A stretch of DNA of 64,000 bases from Mytilus trossulus. Lineage: Eukaryota. Both the position numbers and the translations under genes were made by a program. The DNA lies in the NCBI RefSeq assembly GCF_036588685.1, contig NC_086378.1:15438001-15502000 (forward strand), read 5' to 3'. Positions 32,101 through 58,209 of the stretch are shown here, in pieces. The first letter of the stretch is position 1; each line of letters begins with the position of its first letter. The notes beneath the pieces were generated by a model. That model saw only the letters and a program-made list of their open reading frames with translations, was not told where the DNA came from and searched no databases.

Positions 32101-35100
32101 AAAAGATTGCAGAGTAATTAAAAGATTCAGTTGATTTTTAAAGAGTAATATTATCCCTGTAGTGTTATGTATAATGTACCTCTTTAATTAGTATTACACG
32201 CCGTTATCCACTCTAATATCGGCTGCTGCAATACTTCTGAAACATTTCATACTACAATGTTCTAAATGGTATCAACAAAACACAACTAAAACCTTTAATA
32301 CGAAAACATGACATTTTCAAGTAAATTACAGTGATCTGTTTCTTGTTTAACTGTTATACTAGTCAACGTTAGGATAAGCAAAAGTATGGTTGACCTAGTT
32401 TAGACCGATTTAATTGGATTATACATAATTATAATGCATTTTGTTTGGGATCCAACGTCAGAATTGTCGTAACATGTTTAAATATTTGTTTTTAGGTTCT
32501 ATCTCAATTGTGGGATATGGATCGCTACAATTAAATTCGCCTTTCGTATTGGCATGTTACATACCCTCCTTTAATAACAGTGGAGCAACATGGAGTAATA
32601 CTAACTTGTCGTCAAATACATGTGACAGTAATGGTTTTTGTCAAAAACCTACTGTAGGCAACTCCAATTTTTCAGCAAATGAGTCTGGCATTTTTGTGGA
32701 AATAGACCCACTATTAGAGAAAGATGATAACATAAAATGGACGTGCTTTTATGATTCTAAAAACATTTCGTATACAGTTGAAATCGGTGAGTTTTAATTA
32801 AACGTATATATTATTAATTACATGTTTTGTTGAGTCCGTCCGACCGTTATTCAGTTCTTCAATCAATATATCCTATTTATTTTGTAAGCACTTTACATAC
32901 AGCCTACAGATATTAGCCAATTGTTATAAACTTTGTTGTCAAAGATTGTTACATGTAAGTGAAACCAAAATCTTGGACACGTCCACAAAATTCTTCGAAT
33001 AGTTTCATTTGACATTTATAAGATGTGCCTTAAAGTTGAAGGTTATCCAATGCTTTAGCGACATATCAGACGAAAATCTCAGAGGAGGTTTGTAGTTCGA
33101 AAAAAAACTCTTTCGATTTTATTTTCAATTGGAGCCATATGTTTTCTGGAAATGTCAACAATTTTGACATTTCTAATATTGACGGGAAAAGGGGATGGAC
33201 TATTCTACGGAAGCCCTGGAGTGCCATGCAAAAAAAAAAATTCAACTTGTGCGCACAAGTTACAAACTTGCGCGCATAAGTTACTATCTTGTGCGCACAA
33301 GTTACACAACTTGTGCGCACGAGTTACACAACTTGCGCGCACGAGTTACTATCTTGTGCGCACGAGTTACAAACTTGTGCGCACGAGTTACAAACTTGTG
33401 CGCACGAGTTACTATCTTGTGCGCACAAGTTACACAACTTGCGCGCACAAGTTACTATCTTGTGCGCACAAGTTACACAACTTGTGCGCACGAGTTATCA
33501 ACTTGTGCGCACGAGTTACTATCTTGTGCACACGAGTTATATAATATGTGCGCACGATTATTTGAGCCCTTATTGACATGCGCGTGATTTGTACATTGCG
33601 GATTTCTTGCTTTGATGAAGTTTATGAAGAAAGGTTAGTTTAATGATATTTAATCAATGTGACATAATGCATGGATGTTAAATGTCTGCATTTGTGAACA
33701 CAATCTATGTAGCCACCGTTAGAAGCCGCGGTCTGAGACTTATACTTTTCAACAACCATACTAATTCATGCTTTTTTCGTTATTGGAGATAAAAATGTTT
33801 TAAGAACGGTCAAATCATAAACCACAGACTTATTAACCCGAATAATCCAGTCGTTATATTACGATCACTACGACCACTCCATTACCTCTGAGCACAATGA
33901 TCATAAGGGTGCGTTGTTATTATTCGAGTTACAACCTTATTACAAATTCAACAATTATGGGCTTAAGCTGACAAAATAACATTTTCCAAGTATTTGGTCC
34001 AATCGTATTCTTGTCGATTTCACATTGACAAAAAAAAACTAATGCATTAGGGAAATAATGACCCGTGAAAAGTGAGCATAAACTGAATGTCCGAAACGTA
34101 TTTGGTATGTATAATACTTCTAAAATCATTTGAGGTTATGAGAGTTTACCTCTTGCTCTAACCTCAAAAATCATATTTAATCTATGCTTAAACTGTTAAA
34201 ACGGGTACATATAAAATAAGACTGGAAATCGAAACCGAAACAAACAAAACGCAACGAAACAAAAAGAAAGGGAAAATGAAGAAACGAAATACAACCGAAA
34301 TCAAAACTATAGATTAAAATGTTAACCCAATAGCACTTTAAGAATCCAACCCTTTAGTTTTATGCAATCATTCAATTGTGTGGTGTCCTTGATAGTTTTC
34401 ACTGTTACAACTACGTTAAAACAGTAGGCTGTATATTTAAGGAAATATCCCTATTATCTCTTATTTGATGGTCTCTAAATTGATGATTGCAAATGCATTT
34501 ACACTTTTCTACAAAACTGTGTGGATGTGCAGTACGTGTAACGTACAATATAACATTTGATATTCAAGAATACTTTTTACGGACTTTGTCTTTGATCCTA
34601 TCGACTATCCTTATATGGGTAAATTTGAAGCGTGAGAAAAAAGTTCATGTCTTTGAAGTTTTCTAAAATGTATTCAGCACCAGGTGTTGCACGAGCCTCA
34701 GCCGGGTATACATGTATATAAAAGAGATATTATTGTTCAAATGTAATAACTCAAAATAGAGCCCACTGAGAAGGAAAAGGTAATGTACGTACATTTTAGA
34801 ATTATTTGACGGTGTTTTACACATTTTGATGTTGCGTTATTTCCAGTTTCAGTAGCAAACAAGCTGATATTTGAATGGCTAAATAAATAGAAGATTTTAG
34901 TAGTCCGGGTCAATATATATAAATTAACCTAACATACTTTATAAGTATATTGTTCAAGAAAAGTATGATAAAATCATAATTCATAAAATATCGACAAATA
35001 ATAACAGTGCAAAACTTTACCTTTATATACCTTATATACTTATTTTATAAATGCATTTAATTTAAACCGATTATCCTAATTTTAACCAACTTGACTCTAA

Positions 35101-38100
35101 CTCTTAACTTAAAACAATTTTAGATCCCAAATATAGATTTTTTTATGTCCCATTTATGGACATTATGTTTTCTTGTCTCTGCGCCCGACTGTTCGTTCAT
35201 CTGTCTGTCCGTTCGTCCGTCTGTCCCGCTTCAGGTTAAAGTTTTTGGTCGAGGTAGTTTTTGATGAAGTTGAAGTCCAATCAACTTGAAACTTAGTAAA
35301 CATGTTCCCTATGATACGATCTTAATAATTTTAATTTTAATGCCAAATTAGAGATTTACCCCCATTTTCAGGGTCCACAGAACAAAGAAAATGATAGTGC
35401 GGATGGGACATCCGTGTACTGGGGACACATTCTTCTTTTCTATATAAAGAAAAATAATGGAATTGCGAACATAAGGTCCACATTGGTCAATTATCTATTG
35501 TCTATATAATTATATCTTAGGGAATACCCCGTTATTCTGATACCCCAGTAGTCTGACACCCAAATAGTTAGACACCTTATTGGCCCGACACCCCACAAGT
35601 CCGAAACCCCTTTATCACGAATGTGACCTACCGATTTCGACTATTTACCCCTATTTGTGGCATTTTTACTTTTGTGTCTGTTTGTTTTGTTTACGCCTCA
35701 TTATCAATATTATAATATTTGACTATTGATTATGTACCTAGCCTAGCTGCTTAATAGATCTAGGTAGCAGCTAGGCTAGATACACGTTCATCAGTCAAAA
35801 ATCTACGTAGCCCTATGTAGCTGTTACGATATTGCACGGCACGCAACCCCGTTAAAAACATGCGGCAGTTTAAAAGGAGTTTCGTTCGAACAAGTTAGTG
35901 TCTAGAAGCGATAATGAAACAATAAGCGACGACGAGCTTGAACACGGTTGTCGTCCCTTGATTTTCGTTATCCTCGAAAATATTTTCCTTGGTGTGGACA
36001 GTGTTACTTACCAATTTATTTCATACCCTTTCACAATTCATTTCTTCAGCCCTTCAACATACAATTGTCCATATTGTGAGTTAGATCTGATGAGGTTTTG
36101 GATAATTTTGATATAATTTGTCTAAATTTTCTAATTGTCTAAAAGAAATGCACCACGGAATAACTTCTGTTCTCGGGCCATATATAAGGTAGACCCTCTT
36201 GCAAAATGGATTACTGTTTTAAAATGTTTGGTTCTTTAATATTCTCTGCAAATGTGCAGGTTGATTTCGATTTAATATGCATTTCTTATGTTTCAAAACT
36301 GGTATCCGAAATATTTATTTTAAAATATTTATGAACAAAGAAATAGTAAATTACTAATTGATTATCGTTAGCTTTCACTTCTATAAAATTGGGTAAAACA
36401 GACTTCTTTGAGTTTCCTTTCCGAAGTAGGGAGCTTCATTGCTGACAGGTGAACAACAATACTTCAATTATAAATTTATTTTTTTATGTTATTTCAGATG
36501 TCTGAACCTGACCTTTATGACTTCATGAGAAGTCGCAATATTAAAGATGATATTATAAGAACATTGATAGAGGAAAAGGTAAACTTATTCATCAAAATTA
36601 TTTTTTATTTAGTCCCTACATTTTATGCCTGATGGACAGTTGTCTCATTGGAAATCATACAACATTTGCATCAATAGAGGGCATAACATCCTGATTTTAT
36701 GTTTGTTTAATCTTAATTTTAGAGACATTTCGCTTTTGTTATACATCGACATATTCTTTTTTAGTTCAGTTTTAAAAGTCCAACAACGACAAACATATTT
36801 GGGATACCTTGATTGTCTATGTCAATTTCTAACACAAGACGATTTTTGTCTCGCTTGTGTTGAAAGTCTATTATTCGAGACATCAGGACTACTAAACAGT
36901 GATGGTGTAAACTATTTTTATAAATCTTTTTTTTTCCCATGGTGCCTCACATTGTATGCAGGATGGTGAGATCGAATTACCGTCTGCTATATGTCCATTC
37001 ACGGTCCTTGATTTAATTTCATTGTTCATAGTTAAATGCTAAGTTTTTTTGGTGTTTTGGTCTGTTTATCATTTACTTAATCTTTAAGCTAGCAATAGGT
37101 GAGCTATACTTTTGATATATGGGATTATTGTATGATGTACCTGTTTGTCTGGAAGGTATCATCTTTCTCATTTTTATGGTTCATTGTTCAATGTTAAGTT
37201 TATGTGTTATGGTTTGTTTTTCAGTACTTTAAGGAGAAGTTCAACTATGAACATATCTGTCTGGCAGATATCAACATTGGCCTCATTTTCATGGTTCATT
37301 GGTCAATGTTAAATTATTGGTTTCGGTTTGTTTTTCAGTTACCAATTAAAGTAATAGGTGGGCTATATTTGGTGTATGGAATAGTTGTAGGGTGTACACT
37401 TGGCCTCATTGTCATGGATCTTTACAAATTACAAACGTAACGGTTAATGTAATACTTATTTAAGAAATTTGCACGAGAACTGTATGTTTTAAGGCAGTGT
37501 CTTTGCGTACCAGCATGCAGGTACTAATAGTCAGATTACCGTTCGTAGGCTAAACTGGATCCCTGTTGTGTTCACTTATCGCTACACTGACAACAGGTAT
37601 GGCCTAAATCCCGTGGTCACAATTCTGACCACGGGATTTGATAATTCGACGAGACTAGTGCATCATGTGCTATGTTTATTATGTGTTATATAGTCTTGGG
37701 TCCTGGCTAATCTTGTCAGTATACGACGCGCAGCTAGATTGGGCCGGATCCCAGGCAAGAAACAAGAAATTATCACATTTATAACCCTACTGAGATCTTA
37801 AGGGAATAAAAGATACCGGTTCAGTTTTTCAAGAACATGTTAACATGCTTGTTGGTCATTTATCTGCACCACCACCATGGGGATACCAGATACTTATTTA
37901 TTTTGCGGCATCACAGTAATAACATTTCACGGAGGTCAATTTCCTATCATTATAATTGGTCAATTTTATTAGCGAATCGATGAATTTTTAAAACTCGTCC
38001 AATTAATGCCAATGTGACAATGGCACACCAACCCGTTCCTTCGGTGCAAAGCTATAGATGGAACGGCGGACCAGTTTATTCGTAGGCTACGCGTACCCAC

Positions 38101-41100
38101 ATCCGGTTATATAATATATATGCTATCGGATCGGAAATAAAACGTGAAATATGATTAAATTTATACGGAATTTGTCGTAATTAGAGAATAAATAGATTAC
38201 AACTTTTCATATATATATATAGGTACGTGAACAGTTTTTTCTCAGTTAATAAAAATTCTTTAAATGGAAGAGTGTGATATACATGTGGGGAAGACATTTC
38301 GTAGTTTGTTTTGAACAAAAACTATCAGTCGATTAATTTTATACAATTATATATAAAAAAAAAACTGAGTCAATTGCAGTTGCAGAGAAGAGAAGAACTG
38401 GAAAATAAATAAATAAAAAGGATTTAAAGTTTAACAGATTTAAATTGTAATGTGTATCAAATGTCAGAAAACCTCAGTTCACGCTCAGGACTCTTTGTCC
38501 TGTGATTGTTGTTAGGACTGGCAACACTTGAAATGTGCATGCAGGGTTCGGAAAAATGTGCCAAAACAATCCTATTGGATATGATGGTAAAATTTGTTCC
38601 AAATCTTAATTAGTTACATGAATCTTTTAAAATTGGTTTATTTTGACATTATAACTTGCTTCTTTAATTCTTATATAGACATCCAAGCTTTAATTTTAGT
38701 GGTATAAGATATTTCAAAATTTCAGTTTCTGTTTTACTAAAAGATTATTTTTAAATCTCATATGGGTATTTTTAAAATTCATATATATATATAATTCTTT
38801 AAATTCTTTTCATTTACAGGGACTGTACAGTTTCATTTACCATCAGTGTGCATTTAATTTGCAATGTATTATTACCTGATAAATACAATTTGAATTAATA
38901 ATATTTTTCATACTCTTCACTCGTTCTACACGAAATCGATAATCGAAATCCACATGTCATCGATAATTTCCGTTTATATTTCACGTTTCATTCCCGATCC
39001 GATAGCATTTTATTATAAAAACGGATGTTGGTACGCGTAGCCTACGATCGACTTTTTGACTATTCGAAAAAGCCGACCGTACCCGCATGCGGATACGCGC
39101 AGACACTGCCATGTTTTAAACTTTGATTATAAACCATCAATTTTGCATACCAATATTTTTATGCTCTTTGTCCATTTCAGATAGATTCCCAAACTATCAT
39201 TCACATGTCAGAAGAGGAATTGACAAAGTTTGTGCCGCTGTATGGGGATCGCAAAGCAATAATAGCGTTTAGCAGGGACAGAAAAGACACGTCTTGTGAA
39301 AAGAAAAAGAAGACAAAGACGTCGTTAATGAAAAAACTTCGGGCAAAAGTGAATGCAATAAAGGGAGGGGCCTCTTATAGTAGTGGAGATGAGGATGAGG
39401 ATGAAAAAGATGTACGTAGTTCTTTAAGTAAGAAACTGAAAGGCAACAAGAACGCAGAAAAAAAGAAACGTCTTGTGGATCTAAGCTGTTTCCATCATGA
39501 CGGTGATGCATATCATCAGATACGAGGAAACAAGGGCGGTGGCCCTAAGTCGTTTGACATGGAAAAATTTGATACGATGGGACAAGTATTAGACCTTGCC
39601 AAACAGCTGTATTTTCCAAATGGACACAACGCAATGAGAGGTAAAATCACAGAATTTGAGATAAAACTAACTGACACATATTTTCAAAACATCGACTTAC
39701 AGTCCACCGTGGAGTCCTGTTATAATCGTTTAAAGATGAGAACATTGAGGTTCAACTTCTGCACAGAAGGCACTACTAGTACAATTGAGAGTGACGAGTT
39801 GCCACCTTTATCACTTCCAAAGAATAGGAATGCAACAGCATCTGCTCAGAGTGGAGTTATTGAAGTAATGGAAATTATTGACTTGCCTCCAACCTGTTTA
39901 AGCAAACCTGAAAAATCAAATGACATTTTTGTCACTAATGATTTTTATAATGCAGAACTTCCGGATATCCAAACAAACTTTGATATTGCTGATTTTACGT
40001 TCGACGGTGATATTGCATTTGGTCCTAATGTACGGGCAAGCAATGTAAGCTTAGACTCGACATTACCATTAGAGAGTGGAAGTGGTGATACTTTGGACAG
40101 ACCATTAGAATTTGCGAATGCTGGTAGAGTGGAGAGAAAAATTATTCGTATACATAGGGCTTCAGCTTTAATGGATATGATAATTCATTTTAAAGATCCA
40201 AACATCATGACTGTAGACATTGATGCCATCATGGTATTAGACAATGGTAAGGAAGAAGCCGGAGAAGGAGATGGTGTTTTCAGAGATTGTATAACCCAGT
40301 TTTGGGATGAATTCTATGAACAATGCACAGAGGGTCGTATTTTCAAGGTACCTGTACTTGGGCATGATTTCCAAAAGGAGGAATGGAAAGCTGTTAGTAG
40401 AATAATAAGAAAGGGTTTTGAAGTCAGTGGTTACTGACCCATTTCAATTATGCCTGCTATATTCGAAGAGTGCATTCATGGAAGCATTGAATCAAGTCTG
40501 ATTGAATTGTTTTCAGATTACTTACCTGAAATGGAAAGTCAGATTGTTAAAAAAGCTATTTCCAATTTCAATGATGTGGATCAAGATGACTTCCTTGAAT
40601 TCCTTGATAGTCATTCTTGTAGAAAATTGGTGAATTCTGAAAATGTCCTGCCAATTATTGGAGAGTTGGCACATAAAGAGTTGATTCAACAACCACGCTA
40701 CGTGATCGAATGTTTCCGTTCAGAATTACGACAGTTGCAAGTCACTCCAGGCAAACTACAACAAATTTATCAAGAAATGAAACAAACATCTAAGGAAATT
40801 TTGAAATCCTTGAGTGTACCGGAAAACATGAAAGAAGCGGAAAGGCTATGTGCAGGCTTTTTAAAAAGATATATCAAAGATCTAGATGGAGAAAAACAAA
40901 AGGCTTTCTTGAGGTTCTGCACAGGTTCAGATGTCCTGCTGGGAATGAAAATAACGATTGAGTTTTTTTAATCTAAAGGGTTCACACGGTCACCAATAGC
41001 TCATACATGTGGGCGAGTATTACAAATTCCATCAACTTATGACACATATCCTTCTTTTAGGTTTGAGTTCAATTATCTGTTGAACAGTAAGGTTTGGGTA

Positions 41101-44100
41101 ATGGACATAGTTTAGAGTTCATATAGTGTAATAGTGCTGGCATTCCAGGATGTTCCGATGAAAATGGACATAAACTCAATGTATGAGTACAGTTCTAAAT
41201 GATTCAAGTATTCTTTATTTAATAATTCATGTTTAAAGGAGGTTCGTGTAATGATTTTGTGTAATGATTTTATGTCGTGAGTTCGGCAGAGGGAGTTTTT
41301 TTCAAGTTTTTTTTTTAAGTGTTCACAGTGTTGAACAGAAAAGCATTTCAGATTTATGTGAACAATTTGTTCTGTGTTTGTTTATGTCCATTACCCAAAC
41401 CTTACTGTTCAACAGTTTTGAGAGAAACACAAGCTGCATTAAAGTTTTGCCATAAAGGCAAGCCACTTGATTTTATTGTATTATTGTCAATATTGTTATG
41501 TTATAATGATTTCAGTCAAATAGCAGTAGGTATTACTTTTTATTTACCTTGTCATTAACTATTTTGTTGTTTTATTTCAATTACAAGTTTCAGTGAATCT
41601 ATTTCATTTAATTGTTAATTCCTCTTGCCATTAACGATTTTTTCCTCACTTTCTTCGGTCTTTGTTTCCAATTATTTTGATTCATGCGTAATCCTAAACA
41701 TTTTTGAAGATCTTTTCTTACGCTTTAAGATTGATTTGGATCAAACTTGTAAATAATTATCCTCAGTTTATAATAGAAGAAAAGTATAATATACATAGTT
41801 ATATCACAATATTGTATTGTTATCAGGCCAAAAATAGATAAATTTTCATCGATAAAATGATTTCCTTCTTATGCCTTTTCAGACCTGATTGGCGACCATT
41901 ACTGAAATAAAATGTTCATCAGAATACACCATGTATCGTAAAAATTGATAGGAGCTATTTAATTCAGGTCTTCGATTGAAATTTTGCTTAGATCAAATGT
42001 TTTAAAAGATGTTATTCGATAGTGGACATGACTTTGATACTTTATTGAAAAACATAGAATATAAAAAAAGAAGATTGGGTATGATTGCCAATGAGACAAC
42101 TATCCACAAAAGACCAAAATGACACAAACATTAACAACTTCAGGTCACCATACGGCCTTCAACAATGAGCAAAGCCCATACCGCATAGTCAGCTATAAAA
42201 GGCCCCGATAAGACAATGTAAAACAATTCAAACGAGAAAGACTACAGTTAGTGTTCATTTAGTGTATTTAAGAGCTTCCAAATGAGATAAAAATAAATCT
42301 CTCCTTAATTAAGAAGAATTCCTAGCGTAAAGCTTCCTAGCTTAAAACGTATAGTGATATACCTGTATCAACTTGATGAAGTTGCAAAGTTGTGATGCAC
42401 AATTAACTGGTTACTATCAGAAGATTGGAAGTTATACAAACCCTATCGCTTTTTTATGTTGGTTTAGACAAAGCTTCTTTATGTTGGTTTAGACAGAGAT
42501 TGTCATTGTCTACATGTATGGTAGAATAAATATATGTCTCTCGTTTAGGGGTACGAAGGGGGACCTTCTTCTGTCATATATTTCCTCCTCCTTCTTTCCA
42601 ATACTTGACCTTTTACAATTAACACTGGTTAGAGGCAACATAAATTCGACCCATTTCTTCTTTTTATTTTAAGCTTATTTGCGTAGTGATGTCCTTTGTT
42701 TGGTGTCTTGCTTTATTGTTACCAGTTGTGTTTTTGTCCCCGGTTTACTTTTGACACTTTGGTTTTCGCGTACTTCTTTACAATATCTGTTACAAGAAAA
42801 TCTTTGGTATCGAGCCTTCCAATTTATCAGACAACAAAGACGCATTGCTTCATTTTTAGAAACGACATCAACTGGTACAAGGAAACCTGGTTAAACCGAA
42901 AACCTGTATTAACCAAACATGCTCTTAAGCTCTATCGTATCAAATTGTATGCGTTAAGAACCTGGCATCAACCAAAACCGAACCACATATTAAGTCCCGA
43001 AGAGGTTCTTTTTAAACAGGTTTCACTGTTCTAAGAATTATGTATTTACAGCACAACACAGAAAGGGTTAAAAAGATTACCCCTTTGGAAAGGGCACCTG
43101 GCTTAAAAGGTCCAGAGAGCTTTGCTATCACTTCAGTATGTGTCGTCGTCTGTTGTTACCGTTTCTGAGATATCTGCAAGTTTAATAGGTACTTCTAGTA
43201 ATGTGGCATTGCTGTGTAATAAAAGTTGCATTACTTCTAGTTTGAAGACTATGTTGAGGCCCTGCTCCTAGGGCATGATCCAGCGACTTTGAATGAACTA
43301 CATTTTGCAAGTTACTTTTTCTGCTAACAGTAAAGGTAAAGGTAATATGTTTGGCTAGCTGAACCGTGAAGTCATTATGTTAGATATATCATCCTTCTTT
43401 CTGAGTAGTCTGGTCCTACAGACGGATAAATTGGTTTTTTGTCGGACTAGTCATTTTAGTCCTACAGACGGATAAATTGTTTTTTTGTCGGACTAGTCGT
43501 TTAAGTATACTTTAACTTAATGATGACTTAACGGTTCAGCTAGCAATCAAGCTAACCAAATACAAGTATATTACTTACACACTCGAATGTTTTGCTGTTA
43601 GTTAGTTTGATAGAAACTACTAATATTTGCTATCAAGTTACAACATCACGGTTTGTACATCTCAATTTTTCAACCAGTTTGAGGCTCGAGATTATAGTCT
43701 AGTGACTTTGAATTTATAAGCAATAATCCTGTTCATCAGATTGGTGTTTTTTTTCGAAACATATATCAGTGTCAACAATTTATCTTTAACGTCGAGCTAG
43801 AGCTGATGACCAAATATACAATAATTCCAGGCAGAAGTTTAACGGAAGGAGAAGGTGAATGTAATATAGCCACATATTGAGGAAAAAAACTACAAAATTA
43901 CGTTTAATGGTCTGGCAATTAATGATTAATTCTCAAAATCAATCACAACCTTCGGTTTCTTTTTAATATGGAACCTTGTATAATATCATAAAAATTCATA
44001 GACTAATACAAAAGTTATTGCCCGGATACCAGAAATTCCTTTTTGTTGACCCCTATTACCTAAACTGTTTGGACAATAACCCCCGAATACAGTCCCATCT

Positions 44101-47100
44101 GGTTAGTATTGCCGAACTGATGGTACAAATTAATACAAATCCATACACTTATATATACTCAAGTTTGACTACATTACATTCGCCTTCTCCGTCCGCTGCC
44201 CCGCAAATATTACCGTTACACTTTTCCATGAAACTTCTGTATGAAATTACTATAGGTCATGGGGATTTTCACATTCAACCTTTTATAGTAATATTCTTTA
44301 CAAAGCACAAAAATGTCGGCATTAACCTTAAAAGCTATCAAAACCTGTAAACAAGACTTTTACTATTTTTCTATAGTACAGTTACGATACTGTTGTCGGG
44401 TAATTATGGATGGTATATTTTGGCTTTGCTATTCTTTCACTTATAGGGTCTTTGCATTGGAAATAAACAGTTATGTTCTTAAGCCAGCTTTTGACCTGCT
44501 ACGGGTTATGTTCTTCTTATATATTTTATGATGGTATGATACTAAACAAAAAAAGGGAAGAATTGAGCTTGATATTCATATGGTGAAAACATAATCTTTC
44601 AATCATTTTAATTGAGGTCTAGAGCTGGCATGTCAGTAACTGCTAGTAGTCATTTATGTATAATTGTCATTTTGTTTTCTGCTCTTTGGTCAGGTTGTTG
44701 TCTCTTTGTCAGATTCCCCATTTCTATTCTCAGTTTTATCAAGATATAGCCTGGGAAACCAAATGAATTCGGACGACTATGACGACACGGTCGTTACATT
44801 AAGTCAATTAATGACTTAAATTGTAAATTCATCCCTTATTGGAGTAATTGTCATTAACAGATGCTGTTTACCGAATGTTGCGTTTTTTTTGGGGCAAAAA
44901 CTGTGATGATTGTAATCATAAAACGGCATGTCGCATAGTAAGAGTATTACTAGTAATTCTATTCTTTATTACTTTGAGCAAATGATGCTCATCAGTACAA
45001 TGTGCTTTAGGTATCATATATCACAGCATCACTGATGAAAGATATACACACCTAAAATTACGGGTCTTATCTTAATAAAAAAATACTATTCCGGCTTCTT
45101 GTAATTTCAATTGACAAATATCACGAAGATGTCTAAACAATACTTAATTCATGAAATGAGAAAAAAAATCGAAAGCTTGTAGTCAATTTCATATTATAAT
45201 ACTTTGATTTTGGAATTTGGTAAAACTTTAATACATTCTTTTCGGTGTCGGGTACTTCATGTGATGTGGAATATAATCTTACTCCGTGTCACCAGATGAC
45301 CCCATTTTTTTCATGTTCTATGCTATTGCATGGAACGTTGCCTCATTGACGCATGCCAAATAATCCGATTGTCTGTGCATGCTAAAACATTTTTGAAGTT
45401 GTATATTATTATGTTAAATGTAATTGTAGAGAGATTTATTTTAGTAAATTTATAAATAAATATAATATTAATAAAACCAATATTGAATTATAAATTTTGT
45501 TTTATTATATCTCTCATTTGTAAATAAAGTGTGGCTCTGTCATAGGGGTCTCTTGTTTTTGTCCAGCTGTTTTCCTCCATTAATATGTTAGCCAGGTCCA
45601 AAATGTCATTGTCACAGTCTGAATCTTCGAAGTCACACTCCTCGGCACAAGCATTTAGTTCGACATTGTCCAAAGGTAGTGAATAATCCTCGGTGCCTTT
45701 CAAAAAAGGTGCCTGGTATAAGACCATTGGACGCCCGTTTATGTCGCAATGCTTCGATTTGCGAATTCGGTGTGCATTCCATGTTTCAACGACATTTTCA
45801 AGCTCTCTCTGAAATAGAAATAACTTGATAAAAGTGGTGTTAAAATGCATTCTCTTCGATTAAAATCTAATTTGTTTAATGAAGACACGTGCAGTTAATA
45901 GCGACACATCTGGATGTAACTTGATGAAAAAGAAATAAATTACAGAAATAGCAATTGCGGATTTTATGATCGCCAAAAAATGTGTGGTCGTTTTTGTAGT
46001 ACTTTGAGGCGTTTTTTTCTACATGGCACCGTGAAGTAACTGTATTTCTTCTTCACGGACCTACCTGAAATTATATCAGAATGCATTTATTTTGTTTGTA
46101 TGACGATTTTGGGATTAATGAAATTAGTAGGATTATTTTCTAATAAGTAGATGTGTATGTTGTTACGACGCGTCATGCGCTTCTTGAAAAATTTCAATGT
46201 CATCTAAAATTACAATCATTGAGTTCCTTAACTTGTTTGCACACAAATTACCCACAGTCAGACGCCAAAGACTGTCTTATAGATAGGTGTTTTTTTCTGG
46301 CATGGAACCTTTTTTTCATGCAATTTACGTTCGCCTTTTTTTTCTATTCATTTCACAATAACTTTTAAGCAAGTAGATTTAAGCTCGCGCTATATCTTTT
46401 TTGTGAGATAAAAAGGGGATTGGGGTAAATTAGAACAATGCTGTTTATAATTTGAGAACTTATAGTTAAAGTCAGATTTAGATGGGATTTTTTTTTTTGC
46501 GATAAGAATCCTTATGAAATTCCTGTTTAAATTTCATTTAACCGTTCTAACATAGCTTTTTTTTGTTTGTTTCAGAGATAAAAGGGTCAAAAGATAATTA
46601 CAAGGTTGCAAATTTTTTGGACGAAAACATTGCCAGTTTAAGTCTTTATGTCTTTACGACTTTTTTTATATAAAATGTCTCTTTCAAGTACGTTTTTATA
46701 CTGAAACATATAACATGTTAAAAGTATATCAAATTAAGCGTTTGGAATAGTTCTTCGTTGTTTCGTTTTGATTTAAGATGATATTTATATATCATATTCT
46801 ATCTTACTCTGATAATATCCATGAAAAAATATTGTATCAGACTTTTATCGATGAAGTCGCCTGTGAAGTAGCCGTCTTGTTTCATCTGTTCAAAGAATTC
46901 CATCCAAAATTGTACACATTCTTTTCTAAGTATTCCCCACCAGCTCTCTATACGTTGATTGTGTTGACTTGTTCCATAGAGAAAAGCTGTTCTGCTTCCA
47001 GGACCATTCCTCCTTAAGAATGACTGCATTTCAGCAATATAACTGTTTTCGGTTCCCATGTCTGATCGTATTGAATGTGGTACCCTTTCTAAAGAAGTCA

Positions 47101-50100
47101 AAGCCTCTACATAAAATATCGCTACAATTCGTGGGTTATTATTGCTTCTACCAACACGTAACCAAATTATAAACCTTGAAAACCCATCTATACATCCGTT
47201 GACACAAATTCCATACGGTTTTAACTTATCATATGAGTCAATGTGCCATATGTAGTTGGGACCCTTGGATCTATAGTGCCTTCTTTTTAGTTTGCGCTTA
47301 ACTCTCGCAGCAACGCCAGAAGGATCCAATATGCCTAATAGGATTCTTACCATCTCCTTTTGGACAATAAAACCATTCTGTAAGCATCTCGAATGCATCC
47401 AACGGTATCCATGGAGACAACCAGATGACTTTAGTTGTTCGAAGATAAACATAGCAACTTGGAAAACATCCGAAAAATTCTTTCGTCTGTACAATCCATA
47501 CGAAGCTAAGCGTCTTTTCAAAGTTCTCATAGATAAAATAACATTATGTCTTTGGGCCAACAAACCAATAATTTCTTCATATTGCAAACCTAGGCTAAAG
47601 TAGGTTGAAATAATGATAGCTAAATCATTTGTGGTCATGATTATTTGATCTGACACCTGTAATAAAGTAAGCTGTTTAAAATGTGACTACTTCAATTCAA
47701 AGATTTGTAAACTAGTATTACTATCGAGCATCGTGGGTCAAATGTTAATCCTAAATGAGTATAATTGATCACAGTGACTAATGACTGGCGATAAGTATCG
47801 CTAAAGAAACGAAAATAAGGTTTTCATCTTTGATGTGTCGTCATAGTAATAATCTATTTGTTACGGGTGTGGACCCCCCTTTTTAAAATGTCTGAATCCG
47901 CCCCTAGGATAAAATTTGGTATCAATGCCAGACGGCCGTTTCGTCTAAATTGTGGCTAGTTTATACAGCCATAACTAAGGCCATAAACTTAGTATTGACT
48001 AGTTTTGGTACTCGATGAACATCGTTTCAATATCCTCTCAGTGACGTCGATGGTAATAAGATATACCGCCTATCTAATACACCAAAATGTTAAATGTTTA
48101 TATGTATCAAGTTAAGCAGCAAATAAGGAACGGTGTAATATGATACCCGTAGCCCATTCACGACACAATAATTTACACGACAGAAATAACATAACTTGAG
48201 TGTCAGTGCATTAAAACAAACTAAGTGTACCCCGGGGACCCTCTTACGAACAAATAACCCGTTTACATTGGAATTCATAAAAAAGGAATAGGAATTATAA
48301 GTTTCTTATTAAATAGTAACTTCGTTTTACACACTGTTCCTAATTACTTTTCTCTGAATTAATACAGTCAGTAAAATTCTACCTATGTTAAAAATTACCT
48401 TAATTTATAGAATGTTTGTCCGGCAGGATCGCCTTCCATAAAGCATAGTGTGCCCATGCTATGAACACGTGTAACTATTGATTACAATATACTAACTCGT
48501 GCGCACAAGTTGTGTAACTTGTGCGCACAAGTTTGTAACTCGTGCGCGCAAGTTATTTAACTTGTGCGCACAAGATAGTAACTCGTGCGCACAAGTTGTG
48601 TAACTTGTGCGCACAAGATAGTAACTTGTGCGCACAAGATAGTAACTTGTGCGCGCAAGTTGGTAACTTGTGCGCACAAGTTGAATTTTTTTTTTTTGCA
48701 TGGCACTCCAGGGCTTCCGTACTATTCTGATGAAACTTTGCTTATAAAAAAAACACCATTATTATAACAGTGAAACGCCAACTTTAAATACACACCGCTT
48801 TTAATGTCGGTTTTGAACTGTCAGACTGAGGTTTATCTTTTAAATTATTTTAACCATTTCAAGATACGTTACTTAGTGTTGCGAAAGAGAATATGAATTT
48901 TGATCTGTTTCCTGGGGCCGTAAGCATTTGAAATCCGAAGATGTATAAGTACCAAAACCGTTGAAGAGCTATATGTAAAAAACATCCTAATTTAAATAGC
49001 CAATTCATCTAAGCCAACATTGCTTGAGAGAGTTGAAAACATAGTTTCTTAATAATTTCAAAATTTACAAACGGACAATTTTAGTAAAGTTTGTTAAATC
49101 ATGCCAGTACCGAAATACTGACTACTGAGCTGATAATACCCTCGGGCACTGATCGTCCACCAACAGAGGCATCGACCTGGTGATGTAAAAATTGAAAATA
49201 ATACGTTTGATAATTTTTTGCGTCCGAAGCGCTTTTCTGGATTTACCTTCATCAGGAATACTCAAAGCCAAACATTCGAAATCCGAAGATGTATAAGTAC
49301 CGAAACCGTTGAAGAGCTATATATGTCAGTAAGAACATTACTATATGTACTCCCCCCCTTAGAATCGGAGATGTGTCTCTTCTAGGAACTGCTCCTCTGT
49401 CTGCAATATATAGTTGAAAATTTACAAATAAAAATGGTGAAGATGATTAAAGCCATTACATCGCATTCAATATCCATGTTATATTCATATAAAGTACTAG
49501 GATAGAAAATATCAGTACATTTTGATCTTCTGTTTAAAAATTGAGCATAAGAACACTTCAATGTCCCATTGTGGTTAATGTTAAAATTTCTGTATCATCT
49601 GCTTCAGGTTCATCAAATCCAACTGGTCAGAAGGAGTCAGGTAAGAATAACCAAAAATTAAACGTAAGTTCCATACTCAATACTAATGTGTGTATTCAAT
49701 CTCATTAAACTAAGTCAAATTGACAACGACACAAAAAAGACTAAAACTAGACATATCATACAACGCTCAAGATTAAGCAAAACGAACAAACAAAAATATT
49801 ATGCTGATCCCAGGTGCCCGGGTTTTAAATAGATCACGCTCCACATTTAGCACTCGTTCTTTGGGCAGTTTTTTGAAACGTTTTCGACCGAAGCAGTGTT
49901 ACCCAGAACAGATTCGGACAGCTCTACCCTGGAACGGGTTTAGACATTTCTACATTATAAAAGGTATGGACAATTCTATATTAGGACTGATTCTGACAGA
50001 CTGATCTTAAATCATATCCTCACAGTTCATTTTTGTAGCAAAAGTGGAAAGTAATAACATTCTGACAATTCTACCCTAGAAAAGATTTTGACAGTTCCAC

Positions 50101-55556: not shown

Positions 55557-58209
55557 GGCCGTGTTCACATTGACCTAAACTCGGTGTTGTGTTAGTTTAA
55601 CTTACACTTAAACTAAACATAATCACGTTCCCATTGATAAAACTCAATGTTTACATGTAGTTTAAATCGTGTTTTGTCTACATGCAGTCGATAGTCGATG
55701 TAGGCCTTGTGTAGGTTAAGTGTACACAAAACTAGGCATTTAGAACTGTAATTTTCCCATTTATTTAAAAAAGAAACGAATTTTACATAAAATTGATACT
55801 TATATATACGGGGCGCCGAATGGGACTCTTGTGGTTTTGTACTCAAAATTCAATTTTGTACGGACAAAAGTGACTTTTGTTCAACAAAAATGAGTTCAGT
55901 TTAACAAAATTTGTATCATACTACAAATTTGTAATTTTGTCATACAAAATTATCTATCAGCGGACAAAAGTCACTTTTGTCATGACAAAATTCATTTTTG
56001 TTACACAGACTTGACTTTTGTTACCTAATTTGAAAATTGAGCGACAAAAGTCAATTTTGTATTCAAATTAGTAAAGTTTGGTTTCTGTGAACTAATTTGC
56101 ATACAAAATCGACTTTTGTTACACAAAATTGACTTTTGTTAAACAAAATTGACTTTTGTTACACAAAATTGACTTTTGTTACACAAAATTGACTTTTGTT
56201 ACACAAAATTGACTTTTGTTACACAAAATTGACTTTTGTTACACAAAATTGACTTTTGTGAGACAAAATTGACCAATGTGAGACAAAATTGACTTTTGTC
56301 TCAACAAAATTGACAAAATTGAATTTTGTCTCAACAAAATTGACAAAATTGAATTTTGTCTCAACAAAATTAACAAAATTGAATTTTGTCTCAACAAAAT
56401 TAACAAAATTGAATTTTGTCTCAACAAAATTGAATTGTGTCTCAACAAAATTAACAAAATTGAATTTTGTCTCAACAAAATTGATTTTTGTCTCACGAAA
56501 GTCAATTTTGTCTCACGAAAGTCAATTTTGTCGTCACAAAAATGAATTTTGTCGTCACAAAATTGACTTTTGTCTCAACAAAATTTACAAAATTGACTTT
56601 TGTCTCAACAAAAATGACAAAATTGAATTTTGTCTCACAAAATTGACTTTTGTCTCAACAAAATTTACAAAATTGACTTTTGTCTCAACAAAATTTACAA
56701 AATTGACTTTTGTCTCAACAAAATTGACTTTTGTCTCAACAAAATTGACTTTTGTCTCAACAAAAATGACAAAATTGAATTTTGTCTCAACAAAAATGAC
56801 AAAATTGAATTTTGTCTCACAAAAGTCAATTTTGTCTCACAAAAGTTAATTTTGTCTCACAAAAGTTAATTTTGTTTCACAAAAGTCAATTTTGTCTCAC
56901 AAAATTGAATCTTACCTTACACAAATGACTTTTGTGATTTAATTTCCATATCAGGTAACAAAAGTCAATTTTGTATGCAAATATGTTTATATTTGCATAC
57001 CTTTTAGACAAAATTGACTTTTGTCATGACAAATATGAATTTTGTCTACAAAAATGAATTTTGTCATAACAAAAATGAATTTTGTCCAAACAAATGAATT
57101 TTGTCATCACAAAATTGAAGTTCTCACAAAACAAGTCTGTAGCACATAGTTTTGTAAGACAAAAATGATTTTGTTATGACAGAATTGAATTTTGTACAAA
57201 ACCACAAGAGTCCCATTCGGCGCCCCGTAATATAACACTTATTAATAAAGTTATTTACAGAAATATTTCTCTAAACTTGATATATTTTTTTGTTATACAA
57301 ATACTTTATGTAGCATTATTAACCCCTTATCAAGACTCATCCATCGATCCATCATTGCCGAACACATAATTCATATGACAAGGTCTTCCCGAATCGACTG
57401 GACATTCATGTACACACTGACAAAAATATTTGCCACTGGTCTATACTCAAACAACGAATCATTCATAAATGCAATACTGAAAAAGGTGAGGTTAACTTTT
57501 TTTGTGTAGTATCTCAGATCCGTTAAAATACAATTAGAAAAAAAAACAATTTCCCCCTCCTTTTGCCAAATACTCCTTGGAGAAAAAAATACTATTTAAA
57601 ACAAACGGAAAGATAGAAATGTAGTGATCCTCTTTAAAACATCGCATTTTTTTTTCTTTGTCTGTAAGCACGGTGATGCAGCCTACGTTTTTAAAGCGTA
57701 ATCGAGACCTCTTTAAACTACTGCAAATCAACCAAAATGACTTTCTCAAAGGAGTAACCACTTTACTTAAAAAAGAAAAGGGAGGAGGGGGGTCTGAGTC
57801 CGAATTTGTTTCTCGCGCGAAATTTTATATTTTTTTTTTCGATGGTACCAATTTAATATTTAACACTATATTGTATGGGGAAACTTTGGATTCAAAATAT
57901 TTGTTCATTCTAATCATCTGTATGACCCGATTTTTTTAAATCAATTTGCAGAAAAATCCATCCCCCCTTTTTTTTAAAAAGTCAAATGGTCGTTCCTTAA
58001 CTGCTTATACAGTTGTTTGTAAATTTGAATTCGGTTCTACGTAATCAACATTTAAATGACATATTGTTTAAAAATGTGAACAAATCTTATGTACAGGTAA
58101 CTAAACAAGGTGTATAGATCTGAACAAATGTCATGTGAAACTAGTGTACATTACACTAAACCAAACGTAAACATGTTTACTGTACACGGCGTTTGGTGTG
58201 AACACGGCC
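55557..58209. mobile_element. TIR element (GGCCGTGTTCACA ends) hosting nested insertions
   Basis: GGCCGTGTTCACA at 55557 and TGTGAACACGGCC ending at 58209, with TA on both flanks. Confidence 0.65.
55807..57229. mobile_element. Non-autonomous TACGG..CCGTA element filled with a 20/30-bp minisatellite (probable IS3EU-type MITE)
   Basis: Perfect 36-bp TIR TACGGGGCGCCGAATGGGACTCTTGTGGTTTTGTAC. The interior is made of ACAAAATTGA(C/A)TTTTGT units. ATATA lies on both flanks. Confidence 0.85.

Follow-up and report, generated by a model that had tools for sequence, protein, structure and literature searches.

Transposons of the IS3EU group have been defined by TA..TA termini and a 6-bp target site duplication (TSD; Kojima and Bao 2023, PMC10045372), GingerRoot elements were described by Cerbin et al. 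(2019, PMC6839031), and a legend in PMC10853768 states that IS3EU are two-gene elements, whose structure and function are largely unexplored according to a passage of PMC11934779. Here, we analysed a 64,000-nucleotide stretch of the Mytilus trossulus genome (contig NC_086378.1, positions 15,438,001 to 15,502,000; the window), which contains at positions 33206-48721 a 15,516-bp element sharing with IS3EU/GingerRoot the TA..TA ends, the 6-bp duplication, an integrase-like DDE core and two genes. It differs from the described elements in that the second gene can be identified, as one that encodes a protein with a predicted SAM-like domain, a predicted ubiquitin-fold (ubiquitin-like, Ubl) domain and a predicted HECT fold. 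The unexplained second gene of a whole eukaryotic transposon superfamily thereby gains a probable identity and a role that can be tested; if true, the element would be a DNA transposon with a ubiquitin ligase gene of its own.

Enzymes of related kinds have been found in other transposons. In the fungal IS3EU elements described by Kojima (2025, PMC12730594), a gene for a protein-modifying enzyme likewise lies opposite the transposase and inside the terminal inverted repeats (TIRs), but the enzymes are an alpha-kinase and a TET/JBP dioxygenase rather than a ubiquitin ligase. The VTD/OTU deubiquitinases that Helitrons carry (PMC9741609) are also transposon-borne and act in the ubiquitin system; their catalytic residues are conserved, and they have been proposed to aid transposition. 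They remove ubiquitin and are fused into the RepHel frame, whereas the gene described here is separate, belongs to a DDE element and would add ubiquitin. The words HECT and ubiquitin are absent from the main text of PMC10045372 and PMC6839031, and HECT is likewise missing from the main text of the papers on TET/JBP, Hydractinia and VTD. Within the literature covered, we found no paper reporting a HECT domain in IS3EU; Repbase entries, which may annotate the second protein, fell outside that scope, and the suffix _2p indicates that Repbase probably lists a second protein for the oyster element.

An IS3EU/GingerRoot element with a linked gene for a predicted ligase

The boundaries of the element are exact. 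It begins with TAC and ends with GTA, the outermost 35 nt of the two ends are identical in inverted orientation and ~227 nt can be aligned, and CTATTC flanks both sides, so that the matching TIRs and perfect 6-bp TSD proposed in a first-pass annotation of the sequence are borne out. The left end region comprises, together with the TIR, an array of 15 units of ~21 bp built around a GTGCGCAC-type palindrome, and the same core repeat is present at the ends of a second family, F2; these 21-bp end repeats are likely to be the transposase binding sites. Every IS3EU feature that we tested was found (the DDE core, TA..TA termini with TIRs, the 6-bp TSD and a second gene), and by inspection the transposase alignment (A3) has no conserved HHCC zinc motif before the core. 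In Ginger1 and retroviral integrases, an HHCC motif precedes the core. The element thus belongs to IS3EU/GingerRoot and its host is a Mytilus mussel; the window contains one mutated copy of a recently mobile family. The ligase gene is part of the element, as the first-pass annotation had supposed, and the order of domains given there holds as well; that annotation also described IS3EU as two-gene elements.

The transposase is encoded by two exons totalling 383 codons. Exon 1 is open and matches Pfam rva_4 at 98.7 bits (cut-off 26), with the catalytic residues D134, D193 and E231 at positions 47239, 47062 and 46948, which are invariant across 14 aligned relatives. Over the core, the protein is ~55% identical to the oyster protein IS3EU-1_CGi_2p, the closest named transposase seen, by a hand count against the available supplement of PMC10045372. 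The two-exon model suggested at first pass is supported by five related intronless families, in which both parts of the protein lie in one frame, but the intron joint itself was not seen in contigs from any of four probable RNA runs, although these cover 45809-46807. No splicing of this intron is seen in material in which the ligase intron is spliced (see below), possibly as a result of regulated splicing and possibly because of DNA in the runs.

The ligase gene is convergent to the transposase gene, and this pairing recurs throughout the family. The HECT part matches 17 genomic places at 98-100% identity, 10 of which have an open exon 2 of 658 codons. There are 18 matching transposases; a convergent HECT gene lies within 30 kb of 17 of these (at 5.8-6.6 kb in 16), against a chance expectation of ~0.001 per transposase, and the eighteenth is a 3.2-kb deletion derivative. 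The first-pass annotation had set consistent linkage as a check against capture by chance in a single copy, and linkage in 17/18 shows that there was no such chance capture. In 12 of the 17 ligase-bearing copies both ends and a 6-bp TSD could be identified, with 12 different TSDs, 10 of them perfect. Among the 15 copies that were compared, divergence is only 0.07-0.33% in 11 and 0.7-1.6% in the remaining four, which are older and include the window copy. The family was mobile very recently, and the element and its pairing with the ligase gene are nearly certain. Seven of the 17 ligase copies are broken: all five of the older type, one young copy with an insertion and one young truncated copy. 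With ten open, near-identical copies, a gene spliced in probable RNA data and very recent movement, the Mytilus genome is a good test system.

Several further observations were made on the family. The window copy lacks ~180 bp at 36342-36344 and ~400 bp at 38211-38221 that are present in the young subfamily. Two copies lie in inverted orientation 130 bp apart and two others in tandem (G000:C14:15879627-15911946 and C14:49773374-49804556); matches to the ends also cluster elsewhere, and such clustered or paired copies suggest local hopping or insertion beside the element's own ends. The first 24 nt of the TIR have 109 exact matches in the genome, many of them paired 0.4-13 kb apart. The paired matches appear to be non-autonomous derivatives, and the one that was checked is 3.2 kb long and has the duplication.

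The ligase gene and its protein

The ligase gene of the window copy is a pseudogene. Two in-frame stop codons, the first of them private to this copy among 17 compared, precede the codon for the catalytic-position Cys, and therefore this copy cannot make the ligase. Accordingly, the 'complete' transposon of the first-pass annotation is complete in its ends, TSD and possession of both genes but not in the coding capacity of the second. In contigs of all four runs, by contrast with the window, G is present at both stop positions, showing that the expressed alleles are the stop-free ones. The predicted GT..AG joint between 36578 and 39181 is present in contigs of two of the four runs (X1 and X2, from two studies) and absent from contigs of the other two; no run is on record as RNA, and the only support for the guess that X1 and X2 are RNA is the GT..AG joint. 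The splice also agrees with a named database protein (P0002), and the closest named protein, from Mytilus trossulus, is 99% identical.

Domain assignments were made using an intact natural copy and a profile of 82 homologues. Pfam HECT scores 31.5 bits on the intact copy (cut-off 23.9). The best solved relatives of the 82-homologue profile are TOM1, UBE3C and HUWE1, while phmmer of the single intact protein against PDB sequences returned nothing relevant. An AlphaFold model contains three confident domains (residues ~7-65, 120-230 and 345-665) and a disordered linker, with confidence scores (pLDDT) mostly >95 over residues 345-665. Foldseek aligned this last region with a whole HECT fold (E 6e-13 to the HUWE1 HECT domain; 379 columns; root-mean-square deviation (rmsd) 5.9). 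HECT is described in PMC9547173 as a C-terminal, bilobal domain of ~350 residues; its catalytic Cys lies in the C-lobe. The predicted protein resembles cellular HECT E3 ligases (HUWE1/TOM1, UBE3C, UBR5 and the NEDD4 family) in bilobal fold, C-terminal position and catalytic Cys motif, but differs in its low identity to solved HECTs (12-17%), its N-terminal SAM and ubiquitin-fold domains, and in being mobile and multicopy. The catalytic Cys is present in 81 of the 82 aligned homologues, and of all regions the C-lobe is the most strongly conserved, with a mean column conservation of 0.53 versus 0.24 for SAM. Together, these results uphold the earlier assignment of a HECT domain with an AHTC catalytic Cys. 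We consider it likely that intact copies would yield an active ligase.

The middle domain, noted at first pass as a possible ubiquitin-like region, adopts a beta-grasp fold in the model (Z 9.9, rmsd 2.4, 80 aligned residues to 5fr6; Z 10.0, rmsd 2.4, 79 aligned residues to 6fj7). Nearly all top matches of the fold search were Ubl folds, which were tied, Polycomb RAWUL domains being among the best. The SAM-like N-terminus that had been proposed from the spliced frame received a mixed answer. A profile-profile comparison (hhalign) of residues 7-66 with a profile of 18 host SAM domains gave 91% probability (E 1e-6, 51 columns), with the control regions at 0.3% (Ubl) and 0.9% (HECT), but Pfam SAM matched none of 66 family members. 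The domain is modelled as five helices with pLDDT >95; in three fold searches matches to the ubiquitin-fold domain dominated and no SAM match appeared, and Atlas offered SAM clusters at 0.81-0.82 as a lead only.

The ligase across transposase lineages and hosts

In family F2 (transposase 55% and ligase 30-37% identical), the same layout is present at four of six places, all four of which are bounded by TIRs and a perfect duplication. A tblastx comparison of the window's family (F1) with F2 recovered both genes together with three additional short bins, untranslated, that were taken as nested repeats. We then sampled 23 transposase lineages of the Mytilus genome in a tree. A convergent HECT gene accompanies 14 of these, 12 scoring over the Pfam cut-off, one identified by profile and one weak, and the catalytic Cys is kept in all 14 families. 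Counted by place, 29 of 37 second-clade transposases are linked to HECT and 1 of 38 in the RING/remaining group; for most second-clade families the ends lie beyond the 20-kb regions analysed, and there the link rests on constant spacing across copies.

Relatives of the ligase extend well beyond mussels. At E 0.001, 2404 representatives match its profile; of ten that were looked up, five were named (killifish, cavefish, characin, abalone and flour beetle), and the cavefish relative occurs as many near-identical loci. A relative is held by 31 metagenome contigs, some of them near-duplicates, of which 12 extend at least 2 kb downstream; 11 of these 12 informative contigs carry a convergent transposase, three of them with a TIR and a perfect 6-bp duplication. 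The convergent layout spans transposases that are only ~30% identical. HECT gene counts in molluscs and fishes are probably inflated by such transposon copies, and the stem 'transpos' is absent from the available text of surveys of HECT genes in animals (PMC2837046) and mussel (PMC11353290).

Between families, synonymous sites are saturated (proportion of synonymous differences, pS, 0.77-0.90), so that ratios of nonsynonymous to synonymous substitution rates are not computable, while nonsynonymous differences (pN) amount to 0.31-0.44 in ligases and 0.21-0.30 in transposases. The ligase gene is thus conserved by purifying selection between families, as transposases are. The purifying selection that the first-pass annotation had proposed to look for is accordingly found at this depth, but in the young family private changes are neutral. 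There, shared ligase variants comprise 8 amino-acid-changing or nonsense and 6 silent changes, indicating weak constraint; neutral private and weakly constrained shared changes are the usual pattern for a gene selected through transposition alone. The notion that a host HECT gene was captured once and copied without benefit, which could claim those neutral private mutations, the seven broken copies and the weak 8-to-6 evidence of within-family selection, is largely refuted and highly improbable, given that open frames and the catalytic residue are kept although synonymous sites are saturated, that the same convergent layout recurs over ~30%-identical transposases and in other animals, and that decay after insertion is normal for any transposon gene.

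Two loci were set aside. A ubiquitin-fold domain fused to a protein kinase (L060:625-2697+, at G000:C7:48.99 Mb, beside lineage T42), the N-terminal part of which has one full genomic match, and a ubiquitin-fold domain upstream of a RING exon (L062:3443-6822+, beside T41) are each convergent to an IS3EU transposase; no element ends were found, and neither was counted as cargo.

Possible targets of the ligase

We favour a trans-acting ligase whose target is the transposition complex of the element itself, and assign this reading a probability of roughly 0.4; given an active ligase, the chance that its target is this complex is about even. Under this model, the transposase would bind the 21-bp end repeats, cut, and insert with a 6-bp stagger. 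The ligase would enter the nucleus by means of its basic tracts, oligomerise or dock through its SAM and ubiquitin-fold domains, accept ubiquitin on its Cys from a host E2 enzyme, and tag either the transposase itself or another protein retained alongside it where the element has inserted. Tagging could then lead the host to clear a stable post-insertion complex, or could limit the level of transposase. The window copy, with its dead ligase gene, would rely on the ligase of sister copies. Our preference for a target belonging to the element is based on two observations. In five second-clade lineages both proteins start SAM-like: the second gene begins with SAM (over the Pfam cut-off in three lineages), and the N-terminus of the transposase matches a profile of host SAM domains at E values of 3e-4 to 0.046, which would allow the two proteins to dock. 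In addition, the design is stable across hosts: molluscs, fishes and a beetle all retain SAM-Ubl-HECT, which would suit a target carried along with the element.

A number of results weigh against this reading. HECT is not obligatory in IS3EU. Two of the 23 lineages (T37 and T38) have a RING exon in place of HECT: a C3HC4 RING exon lies convergent to the transposase (L067:4439-4642- and L071:3109-3297-, in 2/2 and 2/3 of the copies examined), that of T37 inside the TIRs and duplication, and no upstream exons of these RING genes were found. Of the remaining seven lineages, two are short, deleted elements, three yielded nothing, and two are those of the Ubl-RING and Ubl-kinase loci; in T39 and T40 no Pfam match was obtained among cargo-strand frames of at least 52 amino acids, and the fungal elements carry an alpha-kinase. 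The SAM matches of second-clade transposases are weak (best Pfam E 0.009, in one of five), and as those transposases belong to a different clade from that of the window's family, whose own transposase has no SAM domain by profile comparison and alignment, the docking clue is indirect. A correlation between the distances of transposases and those of HECT genes (rho 0.67, p 0.0002, 14 families) favours the pairing, but physical linkage alone predicts it. Private ligase mutations in the young family are neutral, with 38 amino-acid-changing or nonsense versus 9 silent changes (expected ratio 3.95). One nonsense allele is common to two copies, so the ligase gene is dispensable in cis and would have to act in trans. 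Lastly, canonical HECTs have Phe four residues from the C-terminus, a position occupied by Met in 69 of 82 homologues and by Phe in 4 of 82; it is therefore hydrophobic but non-aromatic.

Viruses and transposons carry enzymes that act against host control, and an active ligase might instead mark a host silencing or restriction protein (a piRNA, heterochromatin or repair factor) or the chromatin of the element, keeping the element expressed and mobile. The ligase does appear to be expressed and spliced (probable RNA contigs), and HECT, RING and possibly kinase modules replace one another behind a related ubiquitin-fold domain, as would fit effector swapping. Polycomb RAWUL domains are among the best matches to that domain, though tied with many other Ubls, and TET/JBP in fungal IS3EU (PMC12730594) and VTD/OTU in Helitrons (PMC9741609) provide parallels. 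No result, however, points to a host target, comparison of families and hosts suggests conservation of the ligase and not fast evolution, and the SAM-like starts of both proteins in one clade point to a partner within the element. We consider counter-defence only a little less probable than action on the element's own complex.

Ubiquitin transfer could also be secondary if the protein were mainly a non-catalytic or self-limiting helper, either scaffolding the transposase by its SAM and Ubl domains or acting as a decoy for E2 or ubiquitin. The strong divergence of the HECT domain (12-17% identity to solved HECTs, 19-31 bits in Pfam) and the Met at the fourth-last position would suit such a helper, but it is improbable in the light of a catalytic Cys retained in 81/82 homologues and 14/14 families, and of a C-lobe conserved above all other regions (0.53 versus 0.24 for SAM).

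Extending the favoured reading, in which the ligase acts on the element's own complex, to IS3EU/GingerRoot as a whole would make these elements obligate-like two-component machines, consisting of a transposase and its own ubiquitin ligase (HECT, sometimes RING) that docks on and ubiquitinates the transposase (SAM to SAM in one clade), thereby driving or resolving transposition. We consider this broader proposal tentative and rather unlikely as it stands. If it were true, transposon genes would account for many of the 'orphan' HECT genes that are present in multiple copies in molluscs, fishes and insects.

Table 1. Coordinates of element features in the window and of SAM-bearing second-clade loci.
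Feature	Position	Strand	Remark
Left TSD, CTATTC	33200..33205	+	sequence
Left TIR, TAC start, ~227 nt pairing with right end, and repeat array	33206..33560	+	
Ligase coding exon 1, 27 codons	36498..36578	+	first half of SAM-like domain
Ligase intron, GT..AG, 2602 nt	36579..39180	+	joint in contigs of runs X1, X2
Ligase exon 2	39181..41115	+	rest of SAM-like domain, basic tracts, ubiquitin fold, linker, HECT
Basic tracts	39301-39318, 39460-39474	+	in ligase exon 2
Predicted ubiquitin-fold domain	about 39450-39780	+	followed by disordered acidic linker
Predicted HECT domain	about 40125-41112	+	profile, fold
In-frame TGA, codon 446	40435..40437	+	private to window copy among 17 compared
In-frame TAA, codon 624	40969..40971	+	common to copy at G000:C2:56.20 Mb
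Catalytic-position Cys codon 637, AHTC motif	41008..41010	+	aligns with HECT catalytic motif of TOM1
Transposase exon 2, 106 codons and stop	45488..45808	-	
Transposase predicted intron, GT..AG	45809..46807	-	no splicing seen in four runs
Transposase exon 1, 277 codons	46808..47638	-	helical N-terminus and integrase-like core
Right TIR, GTA end	48469..48721	-	9 counted repeat units
Right TSD, CTATTC	48722..48727	+	
Second-clade transposases with SAM-like start	L098:3863-5257+, L100:951-1517+, L123:6102-6590-, L118:2342-2572+, L132:3839-4417+		
Second-clade second genes starting with SAM	L099:8618-9643-, L121:9365-9712-, L122:412-681+, L116:3911-4177+		

Outside the element, at positions 55835-57200 of the window, inversely oriented arrays of a 20-bp unit occupy ~1.4 kb and may represent a non-autonomous foldback element.

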